Shown here: one piece after another, positions 7,341-51,980 of the stretch
How positions within the stretch are numbered: position 1 is the stretch's first letter
Layout: each line of letters begins with the position of its first letter
DNA from: a virus
Taxonomy: Duplodnaviria; Caudoviricetes
Virus record (IMG/VR): IMGVR_UViG_3300029305_001653
Span: 1-64,000 of that record
Strand: one strand, 5' to 3'
DNA length: 64,000 nt
Program-made: the position numbers and the translations under genes
The notes under the pieces: model-generated
Databases searched by the model: none
The model's input: the letters and a program-made list of their open reading frames with translations, nothing else
What the model was told of the DNA's origin: nothing

Positions 7341-7379
7341 AGGGAATCTAGTAATTCTTACGTATTATGATAATGTAAG
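7341..7379 (+). promoter_or_regulatory. Class-1 (sigma-H-like) phage promoter, copy 1
   Basis: AGGGAAT-N12-ACGTATTATGATAATGTAAG, upstream of the tRNA island. Confidence 0.8.
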
Positions 7380-7407
7380 GGTAAATTTTGACAAAAGTTT
7401 TTTTAAA

Positions 7408-7451
7408 AAAGTTGCCTAACATGATATCTTGCCACGTTACTTATTATGTAA
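7408..7451 (+). promoter_or_regulatory. Class-2 promoter-like element, copy 2
   Basis: AAAGTTGCCTA-N15-ACGTTACTTATTATGTAA. Confidence 0.6.
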
Positions 7452-7618
7452 TCGGAAAGTAAATAGGCTGATTAGTCCACCTAGAGTGTGACAAGTGAGT
7501 TCATAGCTCATAATCAGCAATAGCACCTCCGTTCCTTTTTAAAATACCATATCGGACAGCTCGTAAAAGTCTGACTGTATGCCGTCGCAGCTCCTGTGCA
7601 ATTCAGGTTGAGCATTAT

Positions 7619-7692
7619 GCGGATGTAGTTTAATGGTAAAACCTCAGCCTTCCAAGCTGATGTCGTGGGTTCGATCCCCATCATCCGCTCCA
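7619..7692 (+). tRNA. tRNA-Gly(TCC)
   Basis: Cloverleaf, anticodon arm TCAGC-CTTCCAA-GCTGA, GGTTCGATCC, CCA end. Confidence 0.95.
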
Positions 7693-7695
7693 ACC

Positions 7696-7817
7696 ACTCA
7701 CTTGATTTAGTCACTAGGAGAGTGAGTCTCGTTGCGTGAAGACTAACACGATGAACGAGGGTGTAAGCTAAGATTCGTACTTACAACGAGCAGGTACCAG
7801 TAGTCAAATCCTGCTCA
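7696..7817 (+). ncRNA. Unassigned four-hairpin structured RNA candidate
   Basis: Consecutive stems ACTCACT/AGTGAGT, CTCGTT/AACGAG, TGTAAG/CTTACA, GAGCAGG/CCTGCTC. Confidence 0.4.
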
Positions 7818-7822
7818 CATAT

Positions 7823-7999
7823 GGTGAGTATAGCTCAGTCGGTAGAGCGAGAGAATGCCTCTGTCACATTGATGATACTGTGCCGTTGGGAGATGATCTT
7901 CAATAGCTAAAGCAAGAGTCTAATCAACTCTTAAGAGATCTCTAGTAAGATTATTGGGAGATGTCACAGGCGTAGGTTCAAGTCCTACTACTCACCTCA
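7823..7999 (+). ncRNA. tRNA-like RNA (His-type G-1:C73 acceptor) with ~120 nt replacing the anticodon and variable arms
   Basis: GGTGAGTA/TACTCACC acceptor, D arm GCTC-AGTCGGTA-GAGC, T arm GTAGG-TTCAAGT-CCTAC, no canonical anticodon arm. Confidence 0.7.
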
Positions 8000-8004
8000 A
8001 ATAT

Positions 8005-8087
8005 GCTCCTGTGGTGAAATTGGCAAACACGATGGATTTAGGTTCCATTGCGAAAGCTTGCAGGTTCAAGTCCTGTCAGGAGCACCA
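8005..8087 (+). tRNA. tRNA-Leu(TAG)
   Basis: ATGGA-TTTAGGT-TCCAT anticodon arm, long variable arm, CCA. Confidence 0.93.
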
Positions 8088-8126
8088 TTCTCTAAGTAAT
8101 TAAATTTAACTAAAAGGAGTGTTAAT

Positions 8127-8510
8127 ATGTCTTGTAAGAATGTAACCACGAACAAGTCTTCAGCAACTATCTTGAGTGAAGTATACGATATCCTAGATGA
8201 TTTAGGAGTTCCTCAGAACTTATCAGGATATAAGTATCTAGGTGTAGGAATTTCCATTATGGTGAATAGTTCTCCTAGATCATTATCATTCACTAAGGAA
8301 CTCTATCCTCTAATAGCAAAGTCTTGTGAGACTACACCTTCTAGAGTAGAAAGAGCTATCAGACATGCAGTAGATACCATATTCTACTTCAGAGATATTG
8401 ATATCTTGTATAAGTATTTTAAGAATTCTGTAGATCCTGATAAAGGAAAGCCTTCGAATTCTCAGTTCATGTGTACTATAACTAATTATATCCTTAGAAA
8501 TCGTGATTAA
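8127..8510 (+). CDS. Spo0A C-terminal DNA-binding (effector) domain protein lacking the receiver domain
   Basis: LGVPQNLSGYKYL, TKELYPLIAK, TTPSRVERAIRHAV and KPSNSQF closely match the Spo0A C-terminal domain. Confidence 0.93.
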   Translation: MSCKNVTTNKSSATILSEVYDILDDLGVPQNLSGYKYLGVGISIMVNSSPRSLSFTKELYPLIAKSCETTPSRVERAIRHAVDTIFYFRDIDILYKYFKNSVDPDKGKPSNSQFMCTITNYILRNRD

Positions 8511-8516
8511 TACTAT

Positions 8517-8592
8517 TCCTCCTTAGCTCAGTCGGTAGAGCATGCGGCTGTTAACCGCAGGGTCGTTGGTTCGAGTCCAACAGGAGGAGCCA
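8517..8592 (+). tRNA. tRNA-Asn(GTT)
   Basis: TGCGG-CTGTTAA-CCGCA anticodon arm, canonical D and T arms, CCA. Confidence 0.95.
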
Positions 8593-8595
8593 CTT

Positions 8596-8666
8596 GATCT
8601 ATTAGCTCAGTCGGTAAGAGTGCCTCACCTGGTAGGAGGTCCCAAGTTCGAGTCTTGGATAGGTCA
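8596..8666 (+). ncRNA. tRNA-like RNA or pseudo-tRNA with a shortened anticodon arm
   Basis: GATCTAT/ATAGGTC acceptor, intact D and T arms, 14-nt CCTCACCTGGTAGG in place of the 17-nt anticodon arm; no encoded CCA. Confidence 0.65.
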
Positions 8667-8679
8667 TTCTAATTACTAA

Positions 8680-8954
8680 TCTCCATTTCTGAGTGGTACA
8701 CCTCATCTTCCATGACGATGGGTAAAAAGGCGAGATCAATGAGAGGCATACTCGTTGATACGTACTAATGGAGAGTAGCGTTCGGGACTACGTTAGTGTC
8801 CAAGTAGAGTAAATGCTGACTCTGCGTGAGGAGTATTATGTGCATCCTTCGACAGTTTGGAGTACGGAAAGGTATAATAAGGTGATCATAGTAAAATAGT
8901 TCGCATATTTCTCTTAGAAGATGATTACCTTGTGAGGTAAAAACTGTCCCTCAC
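8680..8954 (+). ncRNA. Unassigned structured RNA candidate with a possible pseudoknot
   Basis: Stems 8680-87/8767-74, 8735-43/8751-59, 8879-89/8921-31, 8932-37/8949-54; loop-loop complement GACAGTTT 8851-58 with AAACTGTC 8941-48. Confidence 0.55.
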
Positions 8955-9041
8955 GCTGGTGTGATGGAATAGGCAGACATTCAGGACTTAAAATCTTGTG
9001 CTAGTAATAGCGTACGAGTTCAAGTCTCGTCACCAGCACCA
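8955..9041 (+). tRNA. tRNA-Leu(TAA)
   Basis: CAGGA-CTTAAAA-TCTTG arm, long variable arm, CCA. Confidence 0.93.
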
Positions 9042-9115
9042 GAATAGCGACTACACTCTAAGGAGTGTGAGACTATGAAAATCAGTCTTGACAGCTTGGA
9101 AGAGACAAGCAATAT

Positions 9116-9192
9116 CCAGGTGTAGCTCAGTTTGATAGAGTGCATGGTTTGGGACCATGATGTCGCAGGTTTGAGTCCTGTCACCTGGACCA
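9116..9192 (+). tRNA. tRNA-Pro(TGG)
   Basis: CATGG-TTTGGGA-CCATG arm, CCA; T-loop variant TTTGAGT. Confidence 0.9.
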
Positions 9193-9266
9193 TAAGGCAG
9201 ATAACTGAAAAGTAGGACTGTGGTTAAATTCGCAGATAACCGAAAGAGTAAGACTGCCTTTCTTGT

Positions 9267-9342
9267 GCAGGATTAGTGTCAGCGGTTAGCACATCTGCCT
9301 TCCAAGCAGAAAGGGCGAGTTCGAATCTCGTATCTTGCTCCA
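9267..9342 (+). tRNA. tRNA-Gly(TCC), second non-identical copy
   Basis: TCTGC-CTTCCAA-GCAGA arm, GTTCGAATC, CCA. Confidence 0.9.
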
Positions 9343-9454
9343 AGCTTCTTTAGGTTGCTGTCTTCTATAGAAGCATTACTCAAATCCTTTTAATTTATCC
9401 CACGTTATCTGACAAAGCGGAAAGACGCTTGACAGTAGGACAGACTACATATCT

Positions 9455-9529
9455 AGCGGTGTAGCCAAGAGGTTAAGGCACAGGACTTTGACTCCTGCAT
9501 CGTTGGTTCAACTCCAACTACCGCTGCCA
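9455..9529 (+). tRNA. tRNA-Gln(TTG)
   Basis: CAGGA-CTTTGAC-TCCTG arm, CCA. Confidence 0.92.
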
Positions 9530-9611
9530 TGTGTCAGTTCTTAGCAAATAGTACTCTGACAATAAAAACAAAGGTCCGATTCGTAGTTGAGGGACTGTAA
9601 CCTCACCAGAT

Positions 9612-9698
9612 GGAGAGTTGTGATAATTGGTAGTCGGGCAGTCTTGAAAACTGTTGTGCAGAAATGCATTGTGGGTTCGAGTCCCACACTCTCCGCCA
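9612..9698 (+). tRNA. tRNA-Ser(TGA)
   Basis: GCAGT-CTTGAAA-ACTGT arm, long variable arm, GCCA end. Confidence 0.92.
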
Positions 9699-9699
9699 T

Positions 9700-9984
9700 G
9701 AGTAAGTTAATATTGAGATATGTAGCCCGATAAAGACGATAGGTGAAATGTAAGTAGGTACTTAGCTATTATCGAGATAGCAGGAATGATCCTTACCTAT
9801 GCAGTCCTAAAATTCCTGTGTGGTCAAGACTACATATCAATAGTCAGTGGAAACAAATCCGTAAGGTTGTAACTGGCTCTGGATTCTAAATCTATGAGAG
9901 ATAAGTGCGTAAAACAAGCTTTGTGAATTGACCTCATCAATTACCAAACCTGCTAGTGAGTGGAATGCTCACGATAACTTACTC
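9700..9984 (+). ncRNA. Unassigned ~285-nt multibranch structured RNA candidate
   Basis: Perfect closing stem GAGTAAGTTA/TAACTTACTC; internal GATATGTAG/CTACATATC; long-range TAGCAGG/CCTGCTA; lies between two tRNAs. Confidence 0.6.
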
Positions 9985-9994
9985 TTATATATAT

Positions 9995-10085
9995 GGAGAC
10001 GTACTCAAGTTGGTTAAGAGGACTGACTGCTACTCAGTTAGGTCACGTAAGTGATGCGAGAGTTCGAATCTCTCCGTCTCCGCCA
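9995..10085 (+). tRNA. tRNA-Ser(GCT)
   Basis: ACTGA-CTGCTAC-TCAGT arm, long variable arm, GCCA. Confidence 0.92.
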
Positions 10086-10116
10086 CAAATAAATTAATAG
10101 ATGTTAAGGTGATTTT

Positions 10117-10371
10117 ATGAGATTAATCATGATAGGTACTCCTACTTGTGTAAAGTGTAAAAGTATGAAACCTAATATAAGTGAATACTGTAATCGTGTA
10201 GGTATTCCGTTTAAATATTTTGACTTCTCTCCTGTACTTCCTGAGGATATCAAGTCTTTAATTATAGAGAAAGGTATTAGAACAGTTCCTGTCTTTTTAT
10301 TATACAGAGACAATGATACTACTCCTGCTATTATTACAGGAGATGACATATATTTAGAATTAGATATGTGA
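10117..10371 (+). CDS. Thioredoxin/glutaredoxin (NrdH-like) redoxin
   Basis: PTCVKC CxxC motif and GIRTVP cis-Pro motif. Confidence 0.85.
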   Translation: MRLIMIGTPTCVKCKSMKPNISEYCNRVGIPFKYFDFSPVLPEDIKSLIIEKGIRTVPVFLLYRDNDTTPAIITGDDIYLELDM

Positions 10372-10411
10372 TAATACATAAATTTATTTTAAAAATAATT
10401 TTGAATTAAAG

Positions 10412-10450
10412 AGGGAATCCTGAGATTCTCACGTATTATAATAATGTAAG
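10412..10450 (+). promoter_or_regulatory. Class-1 promoter, copy 2
   Basis: AGGGAAT-N12-ACGTATTATAATAATGTAAG. Confidence 0.85.
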
Positions 10451-10497
10451 GGAAAGTCCTTACGTAATCAAATACTAACTTAAAGGAGAAATGAATT

Positions 10498-11391
10498 ATG
10501 ACTAGATTAAGCACATGGGAGACAGTAGGTACTAAGGCGAATACTAACAATTTTAGAGAATTGTTAGCAAAGTCAAATCTTGATTACAATACTGTGACTG
10601 AGGATCTGTTCATAGAACATGCAGGTACTAAGATCCAAGTACCTAATAAGAAAGTAGTATTACGAGAAGATACGAAAGAGATATTCGGCATAGTGAGTGA
10701 TAGATATCAGCTCTGCCAGAATAGAGAAGCGTTAGAGTTCATAGATTATCTTGATAATGTAACTCTTATAAATGCTGGTAGTGTAGGAGGTTTTGTCTGG
10801 ATGATAGGTAAGCTCCCTGAAGTTACTGTTCTTGGAGATACTGTCACTCCTCATCTCATATTTCAGAATAGTCATGATGGAAGTTGTTCTATAAAGACTA
10901 CTATATGCATGTTGCGTATAGTATGTCAGAATCAGTTCGTAGCCTCTTTTAAAGAATCTCCTGCTACTATAAGTATCAGACATCAAGGAGATATGAATGA
11001 GAAATTAATAGTAGCTAGAGAAACTATGCAGGGAGTCTACGATTATGTGAAGAATTATGATAGTGTAGCTTCTGAGTTAGCTACTAAAAAGATTACTTCA
11101 AAGAAATTTAATGAGATAGTAGAGAAATTCTTCATGATACCTGAAGATGCTTCAGAACGTACTACGGATTCTATATTAGAACGTAGAGAAAGATTTCATC
11201 AAGCATATAATGCAGATGATAATCAGAACTTCAAGGGTACTAAGTGGGGTATGATCAATGCTTACAGTGATCTTATCACTCATGAAGAGTACACAAGAAA
11301 AACTTCAAACTGGGAAACTAATAGATTCATAAATAGTCTTAGTCCTACTACTATGAATGAGTTTATGAGATTTATAGGAGCTGCTGCATAA
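10498..11391 (+). CDS. DUF932/DUF945-family phage/plasmid protein
   Basis: GIVSDRYQLCQN, NSHDGS, RIVCQN, IRHQG, GTKWG..NAYSD motifs. Confidence 0.8.
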   Translation: MTRLSTWETVGTKANTNNFRELLAKSNLDYNTVTEDLFIEHAGTKIQVPNKKVVLREDTKEIFGIVSDRYQLCQNREALEFIDYLDNVTLINAGSVGGFVWMIGKLPEVTVLGDTVTPHLIFQNSHDGSCSIKTTICMLRIVCQNQFVASFKESPATISIRHQGDMNEKLIVARETMQGVYDYVKNYDSVASELATKKITSKKFNEIVEKFFMIPEDASERTTDSILERRERFHQAYNADDNQNFKGTKWGMINAYSDLITHEEYTRKTSNWETNRFINSLSPTTMNEFMRFIGAAA

Positions 11392-11432
11392 GCAGCTCCT
11401 CGTACTAATTATATGATAAGGAGATAAAAGTA

Positions 11433-11711
11433 ATGAAAAGTATTAAGAATTATATTCGAGAGTCTCGTAATCAAGAAGTAGACAATCTTCTGAACAATAT
11501 TCTTACATCGTTAGAAGAAGAAGGACTCTCCGTAGAGTTTGGTAAGATAGGGAAGCGTACAACATATGCATTAATACATGATGCATCTAATGATAAAGAA
11601 ATATTAGGTTATACTTTCTTAAAAGATATGACATTCTATAAAGAGAATGTAGGTAAGTTGAAAGCACTTCAACAAGCTATGGCTCGTAAAAAGTTATCTG
11701 ACAGTGAGTAA
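11433..11711 (+). CDS. Hypothetical phage protein
   Basis: ORF with RBS. Confidence 0.65.
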   Translation: MKSIKNYIRESRNQEVDNLLNNILTSLEEEGLSVEFGKIGKRTTYALIHDASNDKEILGYTFLKDMTFYKENVGKLKALQQAMARKKLSDSE

Positions 11712-11737
11712 ATAATACACAAGGAGAGATTTCTTTA

Positions 11738-12034: not shown

Positions 12035-12038
12035 TATT

Positions 12039-12726: not shown

Positions 12727-12744
12727 TTAAAGGAGAGATTACCT

Positions 12745-16850: not shown

Positions 16851-16879
16851 CTCTTACAATTATATAAATTAAATTTACT

Positions 16880-16938
16880 AAATCCCTCCTAATTTTAGGA
16901 GGGATTTCTTTTTATTTTACGTATTATAATAATGTAAG
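16880..16938 (+). promoter_or_regulatory. Terminator fused to class-1 promoter (copy 3)
   Basis: Hairpin AAATCCCTCCTAA/TTAGGAGGGATTT plus T run; its 3' arm supplies the AGGGATT element, followed by ACGTATTATAATAATGTAAG. Confidence 0.85.
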
Positions 16939-17620: not shown

Positions 17621-17659
17621 AGGGATTCTTGATTATATCACGTATTATAATAATGTAAG
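17621..17659 (+). promoter_or_regulatory. Class-1 promoter, copy 4
   Basis: AGGGATT-N12-ACGTATTATAATAATGTAAG. Confidence 0.85.
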
Positions 17660-19812: not shown

Positions 19813-19821
19813 GATAGATAT

Positions 19822-19880
19822 AAATCCCTTCTAATTAAAGAAGGGATTTTCTTTAATATCACGAATTATAATAATGTAAG
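19822..19880 (+). promoter_or_regulatory. Terminator fused to class-1 promoter (copy 5, ACGAAT variant)
   Basis: AAATCCCTTCT/AGAAGGGATTT hairpin plus T run, then N12 and ACGAATTATAATAATGTAAG. Confidence 0.8.
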
Positions 19881-21550: not shown

Positions 21551-21589
21551 AGGGAATCTAGAAATCTTCACGTATTATAATAATGTAAG
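21551..21589 (+). promoter_or_regulatory. Class-1 promoter, copy 6
   Basis: AGGGAAT-N12-ACGTATTATAATAATGTAAG. Confidence 0.85.
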
Positions 21590-22629: not shown

Positions 22630-22668
22630 AGGGAATCTAGAAACTATAACGAATTATAATAATGTAAG
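22630..22668 (+). promoter_or_regulatory. Class-1 promoter, copy 7 (ACGAAT variant)
   Basis: AGGGAAT-N12-ACGAATTATAATAATGTAAG. Confidence 0.8.
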
Positions 22669-24996: not shown

Positions 24997-25035
24997 AGGG
25001 ATTCTCACTTACGTTACGTATTATAATAATGTAAG
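24997..25035 (+). promoter_or_regulatory. Class-1 promoter, copy 8
   Basis: AGGGATT-N12-ACGTATTATAATAATGTAAG. Confidence 0.85.
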
Positions 25036-26003: not shown

Positions 26004-26042
26004 AGGGAATCTAGAAATCTTCACGTATTATAATAATGTAAG
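26004..26042 (+). promoter_or_regulatory. Class-1 promoter, copy 9
   Basis: AGGGAAT-N12-ACGTATTATAATAATGTAAG. Confidence 0.85.
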
Positions 26043-29144: not shown

Positions 29145-29158
29145 TCTTAAAATTTACT

Positions 29159-29217
29159 AAATCCCTTCTAAAATTAGAAGGGATTTCTTTTTATTTCACG
29201 TATTATAATAATGTAAG
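29159..29217 (+). promoter_or_regulatory. Terminator fused to class-1 promoter (copy 10)
   Basis: AAATCCCTTCTAA/TTAGAAGGGATTT hairpin plus T run; ACGTATTATAATAATGTAAG; downstream leader nearly identical to that of copy 2. Confidence 0.85.
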
Positions 29218-30180: not shown

Positions 30181-30225
30181 AAAGTAGCCTAGGATTGATC
30201 TTTCTTACGTTGCTTAAGCTGTAAG
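30181..30225 (+). promoter_or_regulatory. Class-2 promoter-like element, copy 3
   Basis: AAAGTAGCCTA-N15-ACGTTGCTTAAGCTGTAAG. Confidence 0.55.
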
Positions 30226-30379
30226 CTTTAAGCTTAAAGCGATGCGTAAGCATCAATAAGCAACTCCGTAAATGGGGAGTCCTATTATATAATTATTATA
30301 ATAATTATATAATCAATAATAATGCTTAAGCTGTAAGCTAATTATCTAAGTAATCTCTGGGAGAGATTACTTAGATAAT
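30211..30379. repeat. Palindrome and direct-repeat cluster (possible replication origin)
   Basis: 17-bp direct repeat TGCTTAAGCTGTAAGCT (30211, 30323); 16-bp palindrome 30225-30240; perfect 30-bp A/T-only palindrome 30284-30313; 18-bp-arm inverted repeat 30341-30379. Confidence 0.8.
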
Positions 30380-32504: not shown

Positions 32505-32543
32505 AGGGATTCTAGTGTATTCGACGTATTATAATAATGTAAG
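32505..32543 (+). promoter_or_regulatory. Class-1 promoter, copy 11, directly upstream of the sigH-like gene
   Basis: AGGGATT-N12-ACGTATTATAATAATGTAAG. Confidence 0.85.
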
Positions 32544-32564
32544 CAATCCAAGAGGAGGATTAGG

Positions 32565-33674
32565 ATGAATAGTATTAATAATATAGTGAAGAAGCTTCGA
32601 GAAAATCGAATATTAAATGAGCGTGAGGACTATAGTAAGTATCCAAGAGATAAGTTAATCTCTCTAGCACAAGATGGAGATCAACTTGCTGTCGAGACTC
32701 TTATCTCTACTCATGAAGATTTCATAAAGAGAATGAGTAGTAAGTACTTCCTAGGTAGTGGAGATAAAGAAGATGTGGAACAGATAGCTACTATTGCTTT
32801 CTGGGATGCTATCAATACTTACGACCCTAAGATTAGTGGAGATTTCGAAGCTTATGCAGGTAGGACTATTAAACGTAGGATGTCTGATGAGATACGTAAA
32901 GAAGCAACTGATAAACGTCAAGCTAATAACTTAGCTACTTCTCTTGATGAGCCTGTAGCTAGTGATGATGAAGGTGGAGAGAGTACTCTAGGTTCTACAT
33001 TATCTTCTCAGGTATCTACAGAAGAAGAGTATCTAGGAAAGTTTGGAGCTCGAGATATAATGAAGTTCATAGAGAATAACTTATCTGATACTGAAAGAGA
33101 AGTTATAAAGAAGTATATTCAAGGTTATAAAATCCCTGAGATAGTGGAGGAGATGGACATGAAGTATAAGAGTGTAGAGAATGCTATCTTGAGAGTGAAG
33201 AATAAACTTGCAGAGCATATGAGAAGATCTCACAGTGAGTCAAAGAAACTGAAAGAGGATAATTCCTTAGAGTTCACAGAAGAAGAGAAGCAGGTACTCT
33301 CTAGCATCTTCGGTAAGATAGAGGAGAAAATTTCTATCAGTGAATCTGTACGTAGTGAGCTTGCAGCTACTTATGAGAAGTATACAGAAGAGCAGTTCGA
33401 TTATGAATTAGAAGATATCGAGGATGATGTAGAGGAGATATTATCCGAGTTAGAGGATACTGACTATGATAGCAGAGATGATCTAATTGATTCTTTAGGA
33501 GATCTAAGAGTTAAGCTCTTGACTATGGAGGAGTTCCTGAGTGATGAGCAATATGAAGTATCAGAGAAAATATTAAGTAATATTCGTAATGCCGAGAATG
33601 TAGAATTCAGAGGAGATACTCCTGACGTAGATCCTTACAGAGATAGAGGATTACGTCAGTCAGATTTTGTATAA
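32565..33674 (+). CDS. SigH (Spo0H)-like RNA polymerase sigma factor with N-terminal leader and ~140-aa acidic C-terminal extension
   Basis: AQDGDQLAVETLI, KYFLGSGDKEDVEQ, FEAYA..TIKRR, SLDEP, LSDTEREV..YIQG, KSVENAILRVKNKL parallel B. subtilis SigH (YFLIGADREDIVQ; SLDKP; LSDLERKV; KSIDNALQRVKRKL). Confidence 0.88.
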   Translation: MNSINNIVKKLRENRILNEREDYSKYPRDKLISLAQDGDQLAVETLISTHEDFIKRMSSKYFLGSGDKEDVEQIATIAFWDAINTYDPKISGDFEAYAGRTIKRRMSDEIRKEATDKRQANNLATSLDEPVASDDEGGESTLGSTLSSQVSTEEEYLGKFGARDIMKFIENNLSDTEREVIKKYIQGYKIPEIVEEMDMKYKSVENAILRVKNKLAEHMRRSHSESKKLKEDNSLEFTEEEKQVLSSIFGKIEEKISISESVRSELAATYEKYTEEQFDYELEDIEDDVEEILSELEDTDYDSRDDLIDSLGDLRVKLLTMEEFLSDEQYEVSEKILSNIRNAENVEFRGDTPDVDPYRDRGLRQSDFV

Positions 33675-33695
33675 TTCAGGAGGGAGAGATTGATT

Positions 33696-34694
33696 ATGAG
33701 CATTGACAATATAGTGAAGAGACTTAGAGAGTCTAGATTAAATGAAGAATCTAAAAAGTATGAATATAAGTTCGATATTCCGTGGAGAGAATCCATGAGT
33801 AATGAGTATGATGAGATGTATCATTACTATCCTAATATGGAATATGCAGATAGAATCATGAAGTCAGCAATCGCAGATTTCAATGATATAGACTGGTCAG
33901 AGTATACTTCCTCAGATGATCGTACAGAAGATTGTAATATCATCCGTATGACTATGGACTTTGATAGTAAAGGAAACTGCGTCATCACAGTAGTTACTAA
34001 TACTGTATGGGATGATGAACAGATCCAGTCTGTCATGGACTATCTTGAAGGTCAGATGAGTGATGGCTGGGGAGAAGGATTTGAGCAGAGAGAAGTTGCT
34101 CAAGAAACTGACTATGAAGAAGAGTGGGTAGAAGATGAAGAGGAAGAAGATGGAGGATACTATACAGAGAATAGGATTGTAAAGTATTACTATGGTCAAT
34201 TCTGGTGGAGTAGTAGGAGTAATCCGTGGACTATTACACTCCTCAGTACTCCTCATGATAAGAACATGCCTACGAATGAATCTAATAGTATCTCCATGGA
34301 ATTCGCTACAGATTCTGAAGCTCATGAGTGGGCAGAGGAGAATGGTTATCAAGTAGATAAGATTCAGCAAGGTAAGGGAGATAAGTCTTGTATCTGTTGG
34401 ATGAGTAAGATTGAGGAGTCTTCAGATTATCTGAATTCATTTAGTAAAGATGTCATGAGAGCAGTCAATAGTGAAGCTCCTAGTGCTCTTCACTGGAAAG
34501 ATGGAGACCTTGTTCAGAATACTAAAACTAATATAGTAGCTACTTTTAGAGGATATGAAAAGAACTCTATTACAGGTACGTATAGAGCAGTATTTGAGTA
34601 CGAAGATGACGGAGATTCTGTTATTGATAAAATCCCTCTCAAGACATTACAGTCAGATATCAAAAGTAAAATTTTAGTAAAGGTAATGAAATAG
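33696..34694 (+). CDS. Acidic multi-module protein with shared leader (putative internal head protein)
   Basis: MSIDNIVKRLRESRLNEE leader; LEGQMSDGWGEGFEQ motif. Confidence 0.6.
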   Translation: MSIDNIVKRLRESRLNEESKKYEYKFDIPWRESMSNEYDEMYHYYPNMEYADRIMKSAIADFNDIDWSEYTSSDDRTEDCNIIRMTMDFDSKGNCVITVVTNTVWDDEQIQSVMDYLEGQMSDGWGEGFEQREVAQETDYEEEWVEDEEEEDGGYYTENRIVKYYYGQFWWSSRSNPWTITLLSTPHDKNMPTNESNSISMEFATDSEAHEWAEENGYQVDKIQQGKGDKSCICWMSKIEESSDYLNSFSKDVMRAVNSEAPSALHWKDGDLVQNTKTNIVATFRGYEKNSITGTYRAVFEYEDDGDSVIDKIPLKTLQSDIKSKILVKVMK

Positions 34695-36651: not shown

Positions 36652-37599
36652 ATGAATTGTATATCTGAGATACTGCAATCTCTCAGAGAAAGTAGGGTCA
36701 GAGAAACTGTATTCGTCTATAAAGGTGCAGAGTATGAGAATAGATATGGGAATTATTATAGAAATCATAAACCTATCTCTAAGAAAGAGTATCATATTGC
36801 TCGGAGAGGGATACTATCTCAGAAAGACACACAAGGTACTATAGAGTATAGATTGAATTTACCTTACAAAGAATTCGCTAAGAAGATAGAGGATTTTCAA
36901 GAATTCATAGATGAGCTAGAGTATGACAAGGAGTACGAATTACCTAGAGAGACAAGAGGTCATCTTCCTAGGATAGATCCTTATGATGAGTATGAGAGAG
37001 TAGCTCAGATCATGGAAGATACTCAGATGTCTAAATTTGAAGCTTCTCAGGTAAATGATATCCTTTCTAGATATACATCTACTGATAGTTATACTACATT
37101 CTCAGATGAAGAAAAAGAGCTGTTAGATACTTACATAGATACTTCACCTATTTACTCTCCTCCTCCTGTATATAGAGGATTAGGGTTTAGAAAAAGATTA
37201 GGAGACGATAGTCTTAGTGGGTATAAATTGTTCTTAGATTTAGAAGAAGGTAGTGTAATTTCCTCTGAGAATTATTCATCTTTCAGTAGTAATCTTGATG
37301 TTGCAGTAGCATTTGCGAGTACTCACGGAGACTATCATGTGTACATCGTTAATACTAAGAATTTGTCTGGAGTAAGTATAGACCATTTATCTTCTATAGA
37401 CTACAATGAAGATGAGTTAATTTACAAAGCTAATACTAATATGACTGTCTTGAAGAAATTAGTGAAAGACAATATAGTTTATCTTCACGTTATAGAGTCT
37501 CCTATAGAAGAAGATTCAGAGGAAGAGATAATAAAAGTACCTCTACAAGGTAGTATGTTTATAGAGGAAGGAAGAAATTATGCGAGAAATCATAGATAG
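36652..37599 (+). CDS. R-S-E type ADP-ribosyltransferase (T4 Alt/Mod-like) with shared leader
   Basis: VYRG, YSSFSS..VA..F, NEDELI (ExE) catalytic motifs. Confidence 0.8.
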   Translation: MNCISEILQSLRESRVRETVFVYKGAEYENRYGNYYRNHKPISKKEYHIARRGILSQKDTQGTIEYRLNLPYKEFAKKIEDFQEFIDELEYDKEYELPRETRGHLPRIDPYDEYERVAQIMEDTQMSKFEASQVNDILSRYTSTDSYTTFSDEEKELLDTYIDTSPIYSPPPVYRGLGFRKRLGDDSLSGYKLFLDLEEGSVISSENYSSFSSNLDVAVAFASTHGDYHVYIVNTKNLSGVSIDHLSSIDYNEDELIYKANTNMTVLKKLVKDNIVYLHVIESPIEEDSEEEIIKVPLQGSMFIEEGRNYARNHR

Positions 37600-38080
37600 A
37601 CTAAGGACTAGTCGTATAGACGAAGCTAGGAAGAAAGTAGCTTTAGAAGCTCTAGCTACAGAGTTAAAAGATAAGTTATCTAAAGTAGAAGGTTACTCTC
37701 ATCATAAATTATCTATATCTCCGAACTACGATGAAGGATGCGTAGATGTACTATTCAGAGGTACTGATGATGCTTTTAGAGTATACCCTCAGAAGACTAA
37801 GATCTCTAATGAGAATTCTAATAAAGTAATATCTGTATCTTCTATAGATGGAGCTTATATATTAGGTACTAAAGTATATGATGAGGAAGGTAATTTGTTA
37901 GGAGAAGCTTTAGTAAGAACAAAAGCTGTACATAACAAATCAGATTACTCTGAGGACTTAACAAAAGCTGAGTATCGTTTTAATTCTAAGATTACTAATC
38001 TTCAGAAGTTAGAAAAGTATATAGCTAGGGAAGCTATTAATAATATGGAAAAGAACTCTAGAAAGAGAAGGGATTCTTAG
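37580..38080 (+). CDS. Hypothetical protein with shared leader
   Basis: MREIIDRLRTSRIDEA. Confidence 0.65.
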   Translation: MREIIDRLRTSRIDEARKKVALEALATELKDKLSKVEGYSHHKLSISPNYDEGCVDVLFRGTDDAFRVYPQKTKISNENSNKVISVSSIDGAYILGTKVYDEEGNLLGEALVRTKAVHNKSDYSEDLTKAEYRFNSKITNLQKLEKYIAREAINNMEKNSRKRRDS

Positions 38081-38107
38081 TTGTATCACGTATTATAATA
38101 ATGTAAG
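38069..38107 (+). promoter_or_regulatory. Class-1 promoter, copy 12
   Basis: AGGGATT-N12-ACGTATTATAATAATGTAAG. Confidence 0.85.
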
Positions 38108-42256: not shown

Positions 42257-42643
42257 ATGGAGTATATAGTTAGGCGTCTAATAGAGTCTCGTAGACTCGA
42301 AGAAGCTAGAGGAGATACGACATTAAGACAAACTCTTGAGATATTAGCTGATGAATTTAATATAGAGAATTATGACTCTACTATAGAGTACTGCCTTCAT
42401 CATAAAAATGGTAACCATGATGAAAATAAGTTATACAATCTAGTACTTATGCCTAGTAGACGTCACAATAGTTATCATACTAAACTCAATCGTAGAGGTA
42501 TAGATAAACAGTCTAAAGAAGCTCTAGAACTCTTCGATAAAGAGTATGCAAACGACTGTGTATTCGTAGGAGAATTTCTTTACAGTAAGTTGATATTAGC
42601 TACTCAAGAAGTAAAAACAGCAGATAGTGAATGTCTAGAATAA
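42257..42643 (+). CDS. HNH-motif protein with shared leader
   Basis: LHHKNGNHDENKLYNLVLM..RHNSYH; leader MEYIVRRLIESRRLEEA. Confidence 0.75.
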   Translation: MEYIVRRLIESRRLEEARGDTTLRQTLEILADEFNIENYDSTIEYCLHHKNGNHDENKLYNLVLMPSRRHNSYHTKLNRRGIDKQSKEALELFDKEYANDCVFVGEFLYSKLILATQEVKTADSECLE

Positions 42644-42657: not shown

Positions 42658-42695
42658 ATACTGAGTGTAGTCAGTACTACACTCAGTATTTCTTT
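42658..42695 (+). terminator. Hairpin terminator
   Basis: ATACTGAGTGTAGT/ACTACACTCAGTAT followed by TTCTTT. Confidence 0.65.
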
Positions 42696-42744
42696 AGATA
42701 TTTATAATAATACACATAATTAACAAGAAATGAGGTGAAACTCT

Positions 42745-43860
42745 TTGCAGCTTGTAGAAAAATCTATAGGTCCTTTATCAACTCAAGGAAAGAAAATCTT
42801 ATCAGGACTTTTTGCTGAGCTAGGTACACTTAATCAAAATGGCAGACGCTATCCTGATGACATATACGAATCTGCGTATGAAGAGTTGATACCAAAGATA
42901 AAAGATAAAAGATTGTTAGGTGAATTAGATCACCCTGTAGACTACGATGAAGTTAGATTATCTAATGTTTCTCATGTCATTACAGACTGTGAGATTCTAG
43001 AAGATCAAGGAGTCAAGAAAGTATATGGCTCTGTCGAATTATTAGATACTCCAGCTGGATTGATAGCTCAGTCTTTAGTAGAAGCAGGTATTCCTTTAGG
43101 CATCTCTTCTAGAGGAGTAGGCTCTACAAGACAAGTAAGAGATGGAGTAGAAGTTACTGACTTAAAACTTATCACTTATGATTTAGTAGCTGATCCGTCA
43201 TTTGCTAATGCGGTACTTTCTCCAGATCAGTCTAAAAAATTATCAGATAGTCTAGAATACATTGAGTCTAAACTACCTCTAAATGAATCTTTAGAGCATA
43301 ATAGCATAAGAGATATGATACATAATATTCGTGAATCTCTCATTAGTAAGAAGACTACTCCTACTAAAGAGATTAGTATAAATAAAGCAGAGACTGATAA
43401 TCTAAAAAGATTATTAGAGACTGCAGAGTCTACTATTAAATCAGATACAGAGAAGATGATAGAGTCTCGTAAAGAGATTAAATCTTTGAGAAGAGAGCTC
43501 ATGAGTGCTAATAAGAAGTATGAAAGCTTATTAGAAAATATGTTTAATCTACAAGAAGATTATAATAGATTGAAAGAAGCCTCTACCTATAAAGAAAAGA
43601 TTAATTCTCTTGAGCTAGAAATCGTAGAGCTAAGAAAAAATTTAGCTGTTGAAAAGAGAGGTATGTCGTACTCTCAAGTATCTGAATTACTAGAAGGAGC
43701 TAATACTATAGATGAAATCGAGAATAGACTGAATTCTCTATCTTCTGTAGGACGGAAACGTCAGACTACCATCAATATACAGTCTAATACTTTGACTGAG
43801 AGTACTAAGACTGAAAATCCTAGATTGTCTGGATTAGCTGCTATAGTATCTAGAGTTTAG
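42745..43860 (+). CDS. Prohead protease (T4 gp21-like) with C-terminal coiled-coil scaffold-like region
   Basis: NQNGRRYP, LGELDHP, VSHVI, LDTPAG, GISSRGVGS, TYDLVADPS. Confidence 0.93.
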   Translation: MQLVEKSIGPLSTQGKKILSGLFAELGTLNQNGRRYPDDIYESAYEELIPKIKDKRLLGELDHPVDYDEVRLSNVSHVITDCEILEDQGVKKVYGSVELLDTPAGLIAQSLVEAGIPLGISSRGVGSTRQVRDGVEVTDLKLITYDLVADPSFANAVLSPDQSKKLSDSLEYIESKLPLNESLEHNSIRDMIHNIRESLISKKTTPTKEISINKAETDNLKRLLETAESTIKSDTEKMIESRKEIKSLRRELMSANKKYESLLENMFNLQEDYNRLKEASTYKEKINSLELEIVELRKNLAVEKRGMSYSQVSELLEGANTIDEIENRLNSLSSVGRKRQTTINIQSNTLTESTKTENPRLSGLAAIVSRV

Positions 43861-46673: not shown

Positions 46674-46683
46674 GTGAGTAGTT

Positions 46684-47635: not shown

Positions 47636-47636
47636 T

Positions 47637-48242: not shown

Positions 48243-48277
48243 GTATAAGATACTAATCATCGAAAGGAGGAGTAAGA

Positions 48278-48664
48278 ATGAAGATTAAAAATCTAACTCC
48301 TGTAGTACAACAAGTGAAGATAGTAGAGATTATAGGAGGAAGAGAATTTACTATCTATATTGAAGGTAATGGATGCACTGAATTACAAGGATTCTATCTC
48401 TCAGATACAAATAAATTGAGAGGTATCATTGAAGTAGTCGGAACATCTCCATTTACTCATAGTGAAGAATTCATCAGTGAAGATGACTTTTCTAGTGAAG
48501 AAGAATTAGATCTCAGTGAAGATTCTCCTGAGGAAGAGGAAGTAACTCCTGATGAAGATGATCCCTCTAGTGTAGATAAATTTATCTGTGAAATTTGTGG
48601 AGCAGAATTTGCATCTGCTAGAGGATTAACTTCTCATAGAAGTAGATCTCATATAGAAGAATAA
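48278..48664 (+). CDS. Small acidic protein with C-terminal C2H2 zinc finger
   Basis: FICEICGAEFASARGLTSHRSRSH. Confidence 0.7.
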   Translation: MKIKNLTPVVQQVKIVEIIGGREFTIYIEGNGCTELQGFYLSDTNKLRGIIEVVGTSPFTHSEEFISEDDFSSEEELDLSEDSPEEEEVTPDEDDPSSVDKFICEICGAEFASARGLTSHRSRSHIEE

Positions 48665-48683
48665 TACAAGGAGGGTTATTAAT

Positions 48684-50177
48684 ATGCAAATAGGAGCTTA
48701 TCCAATAGAAAGAGATTACTCTCACTATGTCGCATATGCTGCAAAGACAGTATTTGCTGTAGTAGGTACAGCTACTAAAGGTCCTATCGGAGTAGCGACA
48801 GTATGCACTAGTGCACAGGATCTTGTGAATAAATTCGGTCCTTTACACTCTAAGTGCTATGGACTATATGCAGGACAGTATTTCTTAAGTCAGTCATCTA
48901 AATTATATTTCGTAAGAGCAGCTTCTGAGAGTGCTACAGGATCTACTGTATCAATCTCTGGAGTAGATGCTGAAGGTAAAGAAGTGAGTGCCATCACTCT
49001 GAGCTTCATAGAGTCAGGTACTTACTATGATGGATACACAGTAGTCGTAGGCAAAGGAATTCCTAAAGTCATCGAAGGTGAGTCTATTGACACATACAAG
49101 TTCGCTATTAAGTCTAAAGCAGGTACTACACTAGAGACTATAGATAATATCCTGATAGAAGATATAGGTACTAAGTTCGTATCTAATTATGTCTCTGTAA
49201 CATATATGAATCCTGCTGTAGTAGCTCTAACTGAAGATGTGTACACATTTACTGGAGGAGCAGATGGTATAGAAGATATCTCTGAAGCAGACTATATAAA
49301 TGCTGCTCAAGTACTCGCTTCCGATACTATCGATATGAACTTATTCGCAGTACCTGGAGTTTCTGAAGCTCCTGTAGTAACTGCGATGTTAGCTTTAGCA
49401 GAATCTAGAGGAGACTGTCTCTATTTAGTAGATCCTCCTGCAGGATTGACTAAGGAAGGAGTAGCTCAGTGGCATAATGGTGCAGGAGAGTATCAGCATA
49501 CTGCATTTAATTCTAGTTATGGAGCTCTTTATTATGACTGGATTACTATCTATGATCCTATCAACAAGACAAGAGTGAATGTTCCTCCGAGTGTACTAGT
49601 AGCTGCAAGTTATGCTTATAGTGATCGTATTACTGAAGTGTGGTATGCACCTGCAGGTCTCAATAGAGGAATTATAAGAGGAGCATTAGATTCAGTAACT
49701 AAGTTAGGTAAGACAGACACAGAATACCTCTATACAGGAGACAATAGTATAAATGCTATTTATGATGATCCTCAGGTAGGACTCGTTATATGGGGTCAGA
49801 AGACTTTACTTAGAGCAGATACTGCATTAAATAGAGTAAATGTACGTAGAATGATGAATTACTTGAAGAGAGTCATCACTGCTGCATGTAATTATCTAAC
49901 ATTCGAACCTAATGATAGAGTTACATGGAATAGCTTCACTCTGAAAATATTACCTGTACTTAAGAATATCCAAGCAAAGAGAGGTATCTATGAGTTCAGA
50001 ATTATCAAGGGTGAGACTATTGTCACAGAAGAAGATATCGATAACTACAAGATGCCTTGTATGGTAATGATTAGACCTACGAAGTCTGCGGAGGAAATTC
50101 CGATTTACTTCACGATCACTAGCACAGGTGCTGACTTCAATGAAGTACTTGAAGCTAATGGTATCATTACAGAATAA
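48684..50177 (+). CDS. Tail sheath protein
   Basis: GTATKGP, VPPS, WYAPAGLNRG, IWGQKTL, RVNVRR, FEPND. Confidence 0.95.
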   Translation: MQIGAYPIERDYSHYVAYAAKTVFAVVGTATKGPIGVATVCTSAQDLVNKFGPLHSKCYGLYAGQYFLSQSSKLYFVRAASESATGSTVSISGVDAEGKEVSAITLSFIESGTYYDGYTVVVGKGIPKVIEGESIDTYKFAIKSKAGTTLETIDNILIEDIGTKFVSNYVSVTYMNPAVVALTEDVYTFTGGADGIEDISEADYINAAQVLASDTIDMNLFAVPGVSEAPVVTAMLALAESRGDCLYLVDPPAGLTKEGVAQWHNGAGEYQHTAFNSSYGALYYDWITIYDPINKTRVNVPPSVLVAASYAYSDRITEVWYAPAGLNRGIIRGALDSVTKLGKTDTEYLYTGDNSINAIYDDPQVGLVIWGQKTLLRADTALNRVNVRRMMNYLKRVITAACNYLTFEPNDRVTWNSFTLKILPVLKNIQAKRGIYEFRIIKGETIVTEEDIDNYKMPCMVMIRPTKSAEEIPIYFTITSTGADFNEVLEANGIITE

Positions 50178-50193
50178 TTGAAGGAGGGGTATT

Positions 50194-50739
50194 ATGCCGT
50201 CTAATATAGAATCTTTAGGAGCTTCTCATCTTGCGAGTGCAGGATTCGAAGTACAACGTACTAATAACTTTGAAATCCAGATTGATAATGTTTCTAAAGT
50301 AAGACCTTTAATTCTTGCTGTAGTATCTGGATTCTTACCTAATGAGTCGAATGAAGTTATCTCCTTGAACTATGGTAATACTACTATCACAGTAGCTGGT
50401 AAAGCTAACGCTAATGGTAGTGGTTCTCTCGTAGTAAGAGACTTTGTACAAGAAGATATAGAGCAAGTTATCGACGAATGGAGAAAGACTGTTTACGACA
50501 AAGATACAGATGCTATCGGATTCGCTGCGGATTACAAGAAGCCTGCATATGTTACTCAGTATGCTCCAGATGGATCTCTTCTACGTGTATGGACTCTTGA
50601 AGGTGTCTGGCCATCTGCAGTAGACTATGGTCAGGTAAGTTACGATAGTCCTGGAGTAAAGACTATCAATATCACACTTCAGTATGATAAAGCTACTATT
50701 AATAGAGACAATTATCAGACTGAGAAGGTTACTAGATAA
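50194..50739 (+). CDS. Tail tube protein (T4 gp19-like)
   Basis: Follows the sheath; YKK....QYAPDG....W.LEGVWP, LQYD. Confidence 0.88.
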   Translation: MPSNIESLGASHLASAGFEVQRTNNFEIQIDNVSKVRPLILAVVSGFLPNESNEVISLNYGNTTITVAGKANANGSGSLVVRDFVQEDIEQVIDEWRKTVYDKDTDAIGFAADYKKPAYVTQYAPDGSLLRVWTLEGVWPSAVDYGQVSYDSPGVKTINITLQYDKATINRDNYQTEKVTR

Positions 50740-50795
50740 TCATACTTCCTCTATAATCTCATTCACTATGATGTGTATCGAGATATATAAATTGA

Positions 50796-50828
50796 AAGAA
50801 GCCTTAGGAGATCTCCTAAGGCTTCTTT
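50796..50828 (+). terminator. Terminator after the tail tube gene
   Basis: AAAGAAGCCTTAGGAG/CTCCTAAGGCTTCTTT. Confidence 0.75.
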
Positions 50829-50962
50829 AGTATTATACTAATATCAGATAATGAGGAGTATATTAGAGAAGACTTAATGTCTGAATTCCATCAGAAGATG
50901 TTGTTTAGATATCTCATCTATAGAGGGTGGAGATTGAAGGATATGAAAGAGAGGTATTATCA

Positions 50963-51736
50963 ATGTCAACTAATTATAATTTTACTCAAGAAGTCACATT
51001 ACCATCTCAAGGTTTGCTAAATCCTGAGATACCTGGAGGTGTAGTAGTCCAGAGATGTATGATGGTAGCAGATCAGAAATATCTGTCAGGAGCTAGTCAA
51101 GCTGCGTCATCTTCTATACATCAGCTACTACAGCGTACCATAACTTCTCCTGAGAATATCGATGTATCAGCATTAACATTACCTGATACTCTATATCTAT
51201 TATTCAAATTAAGAATTCTATCTTATGGTAGTGATTACAAGTTCCGTACTAGATGTCCTGAGTGTGGTAAAAAGATAGATATCACAGTTGATTTATCGGA
51301 ATTGCCTGTAGAGATTCTAGATGAAAATTATTTAGATGAGTTAAAAGTAAAATTACCTCACAGAGGAGATACAGTATATACTAAATTACCTACAAATGCT
51401 GATATCGAAGAGATAGATAGAGAGATCAAACGTAGAAAGAGAAGAAATGCTAATGACGAGTCTGAGTATATAGTACGTATCGTGAGATCTATCGAAAAGA
51501 TCGAGCTCGCATCTCCGAACAAAGATGGGAAGAAAGAATTGACAAATCTCGTAGAGATTGAAAGATATGTAGGAGCTCTTACTAACTTAGATGCATCTGT
51601 CATACTATCTACTAGAGAGAATATAAGATTCGGAGTAGTTCCTAGTATTGAATATACTTGTCCTGAATGTAGACAATATATCGATGTAAATATACAGTTC
51701 TCTCCAGAATTTTTTCGTCCTGTCTTTAGCAGGTAA
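50963..51736 (+). CDS. Baseplate-hub/tail assembly chaperone (T4 gp26-like)
   Basis: TLPSQG, D..YLL..LRI.SYG, two CPEC, C-terminal FFRP. Confidence 0.75.
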   Translation: MSTNYNFTQEVTLPSQGLLNPEIPGGVVVQRCMMVADQKYLSGASQAASSSIHQLLQRTITSPENIDVSALTLPDTLYLLFKLRILSYGSDYKFRTRCPECGKKIDITVDLSELPVEILDENYLDELKVKLPHRGDTVYTKLPTNADIEEIDREIKRRKRRNANDESEYIVRIVRSIEKIELASPNKDGKKELTNLVEIERYVGALTNLDASVILSTRENIRFGVVPSIEYTCPECRQYIDVNIQFSPEFFRPVFSR

Positions 51737-51749
51737 TTTAGAGAATATC

Positions 51750-51941
51750 GTGGAATCTTCATTCTATCTGTCTTACTATGCAGGTATACAGCCTTCAGAA
51801 GTAGACAACTTATCTACTTATGAATTCCGTAAATATGTAGAGTTGCTTAACTCTCAGTTAAAATCAGATAGAGAGTATGATGAATCTCTAGCTCAGATGT
51901 ATGGAGGAGCTAGAGGTAGAAAACAAATGAATAATATATAA
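51750..51941 (+). CDS. Small tail-assembly-chaperone extension ORF
   Basis: Between chaperone and tape measure; weak RBS; frame open from 51690. Confidence 0.55.
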   Translation: MESSFYLSYYAGIQPSEVDNLSTYEFRKYVELLNSQLKSDREYDESLAQMYGGARGRKQMNNI

Positions 51942-51980
51942 AGGGAATTAAGATAATTCCACGTATTATAATAATGTAAG
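51942..51980 (+). promoter_or_regulatory. Class-1 promoter, copy 13
   Basis: AGGGAAT-N12-ACGTATTATAATAATGTAAG; leader matches that of copy 3 up to the RBS. Confidence 0.85.

Follow-up and report, generated by a model that had tools for sequence, protein, structure and literature searches.

A repeated promoter of SigH layout and a SigH-like sigma factor gene on the genome of an uncultured contractile-tailed phage

A 39-nt motif that stands before one gene group after another on a phage genome, one copy lying just upstream of a gene for a sigma factor resembling SigH, raises the question of which sigma factor reads the motif and whether the phage provides it. Motif and gene lie in IMG/VR record IMGVR_UViG_3300029305_001653 (Duplodnaviria; Caudoviricetes), a linear record of 112,222 bp, of which positions 1-64,000 were analysed as the window; the rest of the record was included where indicated, and coordinates are those of the record throughout. 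CheckV completeness of the record was 69%, and relatives at 112-122 kb suggest that it is nearly whole. The original prediction, made from the sequence of the window, had described 13 sigma-H-like promoters and had taken them for the regulon of the phage sigma factor. On the evidence set out below, it is probable, as judged from sequence, that the sites, 18 in all, are the main promoters of the phage, are of SigH type and are read by the host core RNA polymerase carrying the phage SigH-like sigma.

The 39-nt motif, its copies and its layout

Sites were searched with the pattern AGGGAWT-N12-ACGWAT, which covers the 5' part of the 39-nt motif, and the chance level was taken from shuffled sequence. 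The sites recovered in the window were exactly the 13 listed by the original prediction, all on the + strand and with 0 mismatches, where shuffles gave an expectation of 0.24 and a maximum of 2. Five extra copies on the remainder of the record (83901, 90800, 92634, 105344 and 110677) brought the total to 18, with 0 on the minus strand. The distance from AGGG to ACG was 15 nt in every copy, as had been described, the spacer being variable in sequence and constant in length. On the 3' side, 20 nt were identical in 12 of the 13 window copies, the W at motif position 23 aside; the remaining copy, copy 1, has G for A at position 29. ACGAAT occurs in the copies at 19842 and 22630 and ACGTAT in the other 11 of the window, again as first reported, and over the whole record the -10 reads GAAT in 2 of 18 copies and GTAT, one base off canonical, in 16.

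The copies were placed with regularity between genes. Each lies 0-60 nt past the preceding open reading frame (ORF), one overlapping an ORF end, and the distance from the G of the conserved GTAAG to the next ORF with a Shine-Dalgarno sequence is mostly 26-52 nt, with one of 109 nt; exceptions are copy 1, which heads a tRNA operon, and copy 7, downstream of which no ORF was called by automatic start search. Together the 18 copies split the + strand into units that comprise tRNAs, many small genes of early type, nucleotide and DNA enzymes, the sigma gene, and the operons for head, tail and baseplate. Near-consensus sigma-A promoters were scarce in the genome and did not stand at operon heads. 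The motif, hereafter class 1, is the general promoter of the phage, heading nearly every + strand transcription unit, and not the mark of a sub-regulon.

The layout of the motif is that of SigH promoters, as originally proposed. In a transcript-start study, SigH promoters of Bacillus, C. difficile and Sporomusa were described as having a -35 element AGGA and a -10 element GAAT, 17-18 nt apart (PMC12456013); in the phage motif, AGGG (positions 1-4) is followed after 17 nt by GWAT (22-25). Compared with the SigH (Spo0H) promoters of Bacillus and Clostridia, it has similar boxes and spacing, and differs in an AGGGA -35, a -10 that is mostly GTAT and 14 further invariant nt downstream.

The likely position of the transcription start was derived from the leaders. 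The conserved GTAAGG is often followed a few bases on by its own complement, forming the 5' arm of a leader hairpin. Among 33 distinct leaders, which are related to one another so that the counts are not fully independent, a hairpin starting at G35 or T36 with dG <= -3 was found in 10 (1.6 +/- 1.2 in shuffled leaders; 0 of 500 shuffles reached 10), and a hairpin inside the first 7 nt in 15 (3.5 +/- 1.6 shuffled). Because the hairpins begin there, the G of GTAAG would itself be transcribed, and transcription would start at or before it, most likely at this G (position 35). The RNA would thus often open with a hairpin whose 5' arm is GTAAGG and which probably guards the 5' end from decay.

This start bears on a perfect TATAAT that is embedded in the motif (positions 26-31) in 15 of 18 copies, and that the original prediction had considered open to use by host sigma-A. 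The usual sigma-A start lies 6-8 nt downstream of the -10 hexamer. The G of GTAAG lies 4 nt after the TATAAT hexamer and 7 nt after GWATTA. The hexamers 16-18 nt upstream of TATAAT (GGAWTC, GGGAWT and GAWTCT) include no TTGACA-like box, and there is no TG, positions -15/-14 being T and A. Since the G start would be too near TATAAT and at a normal distance from GWATTA, and since a sigma-A -35 or TG is lacking, GWATTA(T) is the better candidate for the -10 element, with TAATAAT as discriminator, and the embedded TATAAT is disfavoured as a -10 for sigma-A. Class 1 would then consist of a -35 AGGGA (positions 1-5), a -10 GWATTA(T) (22-28) placed 17 nt after AGGG, and an invariant A/T-rich discriminator.

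Individual copies (all +) were placed as follows. Copy 1 (7341..7379), which carries the G at position 29, heads the tRNA operon 7619-10085 together with an ORF for a Spo0A domain, and a class-2 promoter (see below) lies 32 nt downstream. Copy 2 (10412..10450) heads an operon from 10498 (a DUF932 protein, NrdD and others) and has a leader hairpin from the G of GTAAG, as have copies 7 (22630..22668, an ACGAAT variant) and 8 (24997..25035). Copy 4 (17621..17659) begins 2 nt past the preceding stop codon and has the longest leader, 109 nt; copy 5 (19842..19880), the other ACGAAT variant, stands before a helicase gene, and copy 6 occupies 21551..21589. Copy 11 (32505..32543) precedes the sigma gene. 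Copy 12 (38069..38107) overlaps the end of ORF 37580-38080 and heads a head/tail operon (portal, protease, capsid protein, sheath), and copy 13 (51942..51980) heads the tape-measure, baseplate and later tail genes.

Two further observations concern the surroundings of the copies. In copies 3 (16900..16938), 5 and 10 (29179..29217), the -35 box lies in the 3' arm of a strong upstream terminator hairpin (16872-16918, 19814-19860 and 29151-29197; -18, -17 and -15.6 kcal/mol), and the T-run of the terminator serves as promoter spacer, giving three compact terminator-promoter cassettes. Near-identical cassettes of promoter, leader and Shine-Dalgarno sequence, ~85-100 nt long, form three groups (16900/26004/51942; 10412/29179; 19842/83901/110677), which suggests that expression cassettes were duplicated or gene-converted; the leader of copy 9 (26004..26042) is almost equal to those of copies 3 and 13, and that of copy 10 is identical to that of copy 2.

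The SigH-like sigma factor and its relatives

The gene behind copy 11 is ORF 32565-33674 (+), which encodes a protein of 369 aa. Copy 11 ends at 32543 and the ATG lies at 32565, leaving the 21-nt gap that had been noted originally. The protein carries sigma regions 2 (~28-127) and 4 (~152-222), preceded by a leader helix (1-19) that ends in LNE. The top five NCBIfam models were all SigH/PRK08295 (E about 1e-28 to 1e-24, the best at 2.5e-28 to 5e-28), followed by the generic ECF superfamily model and then by SigI and SigK at E 1e-14 or weaker. The best sequence match to a solved structure was Fusobacterium sigma-H (3mzy, 1.2e-15), and the predicted structure had one Foldseek match at E <= 0.001, B. 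subtilis SigH (9a4r). The ORF is a real sigma factor of the sigma-70 family, nearest to SigH by sequence, solved structure and fold, which bears out its first annotation as sigH-like. Its scores fall below the curated equivalog thresholds (97.8 bits against a cut-off of 294.8 for TIGR02859; 99.1 against 212 for PRK08295.1-4); by its sequence it is a divergent relative of SigH and not an ortholog or equivalog.

The helix of region 4.2, which reads the -35, is the part most like that of bacterial SigH. It reads KSVENAILRVKNK in the phage protein, KSVDNAIQRIKNK in a Lachnospiraceae SigH and KSIDNTIQRIRKK in 3mzy, with 10 of 13 residues identical between phage and Lachnospiraceae and a similar match to 3mzy, and it is near-invariant across a 38-member phage family. 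Other parts depart from the compact SigH form of ~200-220 aa without added domains. Foreign to bacterial SigH in the alignment are the 19-residue N-terminal helix and a C-terminal region of ~140 residues, within which residues 239-345 were modelled as a helical bundle (pLDDT 80-94) and the C-terminal tail is conserved; a fold search with the bundle (Atlas) returned generic helical matches only. In the model, disordered stretches at 15-20 and 224-231 set the leader and the C-terminal part apart from the sigma core; an acidic disordered linker follows sigma-2, and the stretch 224-231 holds an L-K-E site. Set beside bacterial SigH systems, that of the phage is alike in the SigH-type region 4.2 helix and differs in having its sites on the phage, at the head of nearly all operons, and in a sigma with a 19-aa leader and a ~140-aa C-terminal extension that scores below the curated cut-off.

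Relatives were found by protein search in ENA and Logan assemblies, and ten contigs were read in slices of ~20 kb each. Exact-motif scans of IMG/VR and JGI metagenome contigs gave no match, nor did a protein-pattern scan of IMG/VR with the sigma. The protein search yielded ~50 sigma homologs of the same length and with the same leader, at 40-60% identity. On the ten contigs the sigma gene holds a fixed place, just upstream of genes for a terminase-like protein, portal, protease and capsid protein, and their motif is the same as that of class 1, with canonical ACGAAT. A loose pattern gave 55 matches in the 11 sequences; that at 7277 in this record is a chance match, leaving 54 real copies. Over the 54 copies, information content peaked at AGGGA and at positions 20-28; it reached 1.6-2 bits at AGGGA, T7, ACG and positions 24-28 and ran at 1.2-1.7 bits over positions 29-38. 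In L014, the contig furthest removed, AGGGA, GAAT and TATAAT persist and C21 and AATGTAAG are lost. In this phage and in L004, L010, L013, L016 and L021 the motif immediately precedes the sigma gene; in L006, L008 and L023 it stands one or two genes further upstream. A near-fixed promoter and an equally fixed DNA-reading helix, kept while the proteins drift to 50% identity, would be the pattern of a cognate pair, as a correlation and not a proof.

Further features of the sigma gene and of the relatives were noted. At the start of region 2.4, residues 99-100 are R-T in this sigma alone and M-I, M-V or similar in ~40 relatives, and this phage alone prefers GTAT over GAAT at the -10; the two may together reflect a change of specificity, as a single case. 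A general covariation of region 2.4 with the -10 base was considered and rejected: the sigmas of L021 (M-T) and L016 (R-I) still use GAAT, which leaves a single instance. The leader of the sigma gene (32539-32567) is without a 5'-terminal hairpin; instead, AATCC/GGATT pairing around the Shine-Dalgarno sequence is possible and may limit translation of the sigma. An additional sigma-70 region-2 protein (162-253 aa) is encoded in some relatives (L006 3969-4730, L014 1743-2489, L015 1059-1547); this second sigma gene of L006, L014 and L015 has no homolog in the present record.

Class-2 sites, a second sigma-like gene and the phage genome

A second promoter class was recognised between genes, with the form GT(A/G)GC..AA(C/G), 14 nt, CGTTNC, 7 A/T-rich nt and GTAAG. 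In the window it is found at 7411..7452 (+; GTTGCCTAAC, 14 nt, CGTTAC, 7 A/T-rich nt, GTAAT), in tandem with class-1 copy 1, and as a class-2-like site with a variant -35 at 30184..30226 (+); further sites lie near 90.58, 99.82 and 108.19 kb, and one on the minus strand near 90.55 kb. The minus-strand copy heads the sole minus-strand operon (HD/YfbR-like, PIG-L, hexapeptide transferase, AMP-binding and radical SAM proteins). Two divergent class-2 copies flank a dyad and serve this operon and the topoisomerase gene; in a relative (L026, 16630-16730) both divergent copies are kept, with a hairpin from GTAAG that shows compensatory changes. Boxes of the type AAC ... CGT are ECF-like. Two classes with different boxes and a common start context would fit two sigma factors feeding one core enzyme, and the sharing of the start context by different boxes supports GWATTA(T) as the class-1 -10.

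A candidate for the second sigma is encoded by ORF 83980-84585 (L002 980-1585; 201 aa), a core gene with 113 homologs on 112-122-kb contigs from gut and other anaerobic samples, which sits behind a class-1 copy both here and in L026. It carries a DLxQE motif like that of sigma region 2.2, and its model has two helical domains. In fold comparison, the top 13 Foldseek rows were all ECF sigmas and ~20 of 50 VIA rows were sigma-2 or sigma-4 domains, as weak matches (E >= 0.14; Z <= 6.8). Searches of Pfam, NCBIfam, PHROGs and PDB profiles gave no match, the hint of a sigma coming from fold comparison alone. The ORF is probably a second, very divergent sigma factor and would be the likely reader of class 2.

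Other elements of the non-coding sequence were noted. A conserved element of ~130 nt follows the class-2-like site (30208-30345) and recurs at ~90.61-90.76 kb of the record and in relatives (L026 16708-16830; L004 ~6640-6700; L010 ~1-60); it comprises a perfect hairpin from GTAAGC, with compensatory changes in L026, a GC-rich stem, A/T palindromes of the ATTATTATAATAAT type and a second GCTTAGCATGTAAGC box, for which a small RNA, an origin and a regulatory region are all conceivable roles. Terminators of the late region are followed, at 42690-42720 and, on the record, at ~67375-67410 and ~79314-79345, by A/T-rich TATAAT-type sites that lack an upstream box; these sites precede the protease and capsid genes, a gene of 1392 aa and the gene at 79409, respectively; they may be a third, -10-only type of promoter, or chance matches. 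T4-type late promoters (TATAAATA) were considered and rejected, with 7 in the genome, of which 1 alone lay close to a start codon. An overlap of ACGAAT with a Spo0A box (TGNCGAA) was likewise discarded: the ACGTAT of the window does not fit it, and a box at the -10 would repress.

In the window, every long ORF is encoded on the + strand. By PHROG and Pfam matches, the phage is contractile-tailed with T4-type head genes (portal, gp21-type protease, gp23-type capsid protein), and further genes encode a sheath, SbcC, the anaerobic ribonucleotide reductase NrdD, helicases, topoisomerase II, a DNA polymerase and an NAD-dependent ligase. No phage RNA polymerase gene was found among the 20 large ORFs scanned. 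Nine to 11 tRNA genes are carried; two tRNA-like genes (7824-7996 and 8596-8666) were called by Rfam and missed by ARAGORN, the first spanning 173 nt, which implies a long insert. Inside the tRNA operon, ORF 8127-8510 encodes a stand-alone Spo0A DNA-binding domain (E 7.6e-30 to TIGR02875, model residues 138-253) without a receiver, of the same kind as the truncated phage spo0A genes reported previously (PMC10294663). The nearest bacterial Spo0A domains, at 31-37% identity, come from metagenome-assembled genomes of Lachnospiraceae and Faecousia. Given NrdD, the Spo0A domain and these nearest bacterial domains, the host is probably a member of Clostridia, with no closer assignment.

Among cultured phages, the nearest by capsid protein were Listeria LIS04, Bacillus SP-15 and Bacillus HSE3 (~40% identity), none of which has this sigma in its head block. 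Megablast of the 32-40 kb region against GenBank phages gave no match. GenBank MT835476, the best tblastn match of the sigma (27% identity), was set aside as a relative: it has 49% GC and a sigma without the leader, and is more like an ordinary bacterial-type SigH locus.

Readers of class 1, the first sigma and known systems

In the mechanism that we favour, host core RNA polymerase carrying the phage SigH-like sigma would read the class-1 promoters, and since the sigma gene stands behind one of them its expression would feed back on itself, as first suggested from copy 11. The idea of a phage-sigma regulon thus survives in part: sigma and motif are conserved jointly in 11 sequences, while the number of copies is 18 and not 13, the motif marks a general promoter and not a sub-regulon, and a second class and a second sigma-like gene have been added. 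Several points weigh against our reading. The pairing of sigma with motif would follow from the resemblance to SigH and from joint conservation; this phage mostly has GTAT, not the canonical GAAT; and a score of 98 against 295 bits at the SigH cut-off means that the specificity of the sigma could differ. The embedded perfect TATAAT, kept even in the most distant relative, is explained only as discriminator, and a further candidate reader is the product of the second sigma-like core gene, 83980-84585. Early-type and structural operons share the motif, so the model offers no temporal control, and the CheckV completeness of 69% may leave room for an unseen early region with sigma-A promoters.

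Two readings give the task to a host sigma. Host SigH might be the main reader, the phage homolog mainly disturbing host sporulation or boosting a start made by host SigH. The motif does fit the bacterial SigH consensus and spacing, relatives have the canonical GAAT, the source of the first sigma would be settled, and a receiver-less Spo0A domain is of a gene type that has been read as a means of manipulating sporulation (PMC10294663; PMC9429907). However, the phage sigma is a fixed-position core gene beside the head genes in 11 of 11 sequences, usually behind the motif, which fits a need for it in phage transcription; reliance of every operon on a growth-phase-limited host sigma would confine infection to a narrow host state; and the 39-nt invariance far exceeds that of bacterial SigH promoters. 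We regard this reading as unlikely. Use of the embedded TATAAT by host sigma-A, with AGGGA and ACG as sites of a phage activator or as UP-like elements, appears distinctly unlikely. The hexamer is perfect in 15 of 18 copies and persists in L014, and some host-readable promoter is needed early in a genome otherwise poor in near-consensus sigma-A promoters; yet the absence of a TTGACA-like hexamer at 16-18 nt and of TG at -15/-14, the start of the leader hairpins too close behind the hexamer for sigma-A, an information content that peaks over positions 22-28 and drops at 29-31, and the same start context behind the quite different boxes of class 2 all speak for another -10.

The remaining readings take the SigH-like protein, or transcription initiation itself, out of the picture. 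That the product of ORF 83980-84585 reads class 1 and the SigH-like protein something else is very unlikely, even though this ORF is, like the motif, the more conserved partner (~70% in two relatives of 115-116 kb, where the SigH-like sigma has ~52%) and has a model similar to two-domain ECF sigmas. Fold matches of the ORF are weak and it goes undetected by Pfam and NCBIfam; the ECF-like boxes are those of class 2 (AAC ... CGT), whereas for class 1 the two boxes and their spacing match SigH; and the ORF is itself placed behind a class-1 copy in two phages. It is hardly credible that the sites are not promoters at all and act instead as repeats in recombination, packaging, replication or RNA processing. 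Sigma-dependent promoters are not usually invariant over 39 nt, and promoter-plus-leader cassettes are duplicated (copies 3/9/13; 2/10), but the sites keep to one strand, are strictly intergenic, stand at a fixed distance from ribosome-binding sites with terminators upstream, show a two-box layout with a variable spacer, and occupy the same gene junctions in relatives.

Reading of class 1 by the phage sigma leaves a bootstrapping problem, since a sigma gene behind its own promoter class needs a first sigma that comes from elsewhere. The first molecules could be owed to host SigH acting on the sites, could be made by weak sigma-A use of them, or could arrive with the virion. The last source is raised by the N-terminal leader, which is common to five ORFs of the head gene block: the sigma gene (32565), ORF 33690..34694 (+; a candidate head cargo), ORF 36652..37599 (+; weak PHROG match to a minor head protein), ORF 37580..38080 (+) and ORF 42257..42643 (+). 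Their leaders end in LNE, LNE, VRE, IDE and LEE, respectively, with one V in place of L or I. Relatives have kept this leader, one of the best-conserved segments of the sigma, and an (L/I)-x-E site is also common, across sigma homologs, in the disordered stretch after sigma-4. A T4 gp21-type prohead protease (42745..43860, +; S77 family in relatives) is expected to cleave after (L/I)-x-E.

In T4, (L/I)-x-E is the cleavage motif of gp21, and N-terminal capsid-targeting sequences load the internal proteins IPI-III into the head (PMC9026906); T4 Alt, which retunes host RNA polymerase, is also packaged and ejected, and gp21 cuts it at its two ends (PMC9026906). The present phage is alike in its short shared leader with an (L/I)-x-E end, gp21-type protease, gp20-type portal and gp23-type capsid protein, and differs in that the cargo would be a sigma factor, that the leader has ~19 aa as against ~10, and that the system is known from genes alone. 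By this analogy, the T4-type, capsid-targeting-like leader on the sigma suggests a possible delivery by the virion. That virions may contain a sigma factor has been reported for Salmonella phage Arash, whose sigma Gp10 was detected in them by mass spectrometry (PMC10585845). In Arash, the phage's own beta and beta' subunits are packaged as well, whereas here, with no polymerase gene detected among the ORFs scanned, a packaged sigma would need the host core. We tentatively put forward, as a possible course of events, that the sigma is loaded into the prohead by its leader, trimmed by the T4-type head protease after LNE (with a second cut perhaps made at the (L/I)-x-E site that separates sigma-4 from the bundle), ejected along with the DNA, and then captures the host core to start all 18 class-1 promoters, including that of its own gene, without a host sigma; one of these promoters would then switch on the ECF-like sigma of ORF 83980-84585 for class 2. 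Host polymerase would in that case be served by a sigma from the virion, and the phage would run a self-contained programme of two sigmas.

In phages of the SPO1 and T4 type, early genes have strong sigma-A promoters and a phage sigma serves middle or late classes. The present phage shares with these sigma cascades (SPO1 gp28 and gp33/34; T4 gp55; PMC9429907) a sigma-70-family protein of its own and a conserved phage promoter that is not of sigma-A type, with redirection of the host core predicted here; it differs in that one class also precedes early-type genes and the sigma gene, and in that the sigma is of SigH lineage. A second comparison is with phage sporulation regulators, in which sigF/sigG-like sigmas and truncated spo0A genes have been read as tools that alter host dormancy (PMC9429907; PMC10294663). 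Here too the phage of a probable spore-former carries homologs of proteins of sporulation entry (a SigH-like sigma and a Spo0A effector domain alone); here, in contrast, 18 matching promoters lie on the phage itself and point to phage transcription. A phage sigma with cognate promoters is thus known in kind, and what is new is the SigH lineage, the near-total coverage of a genome by one class that includes the gene of the sigma, the shared start-and-hairpin design and the possible capsid delivery.

For a SigH-type sigma with a full set of promoters on the phage, the role points to running phage transcription rather than to tampering with dormancy, and this in a phage family that is large (>100 homologs of the second core gene) and uncultured. 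A 39-nt promoter and a small sigma, working together, would give a compact orthogonal expression pair for Clostridia. Phages N4 and phiKZ inject polymerases. If it is true that the sigma travels in the capsid, it would constitute a new form of polymerase takeover, standing between the injected modifier of T4, Alt, and the injected polymerases of N4 and phiKZ.

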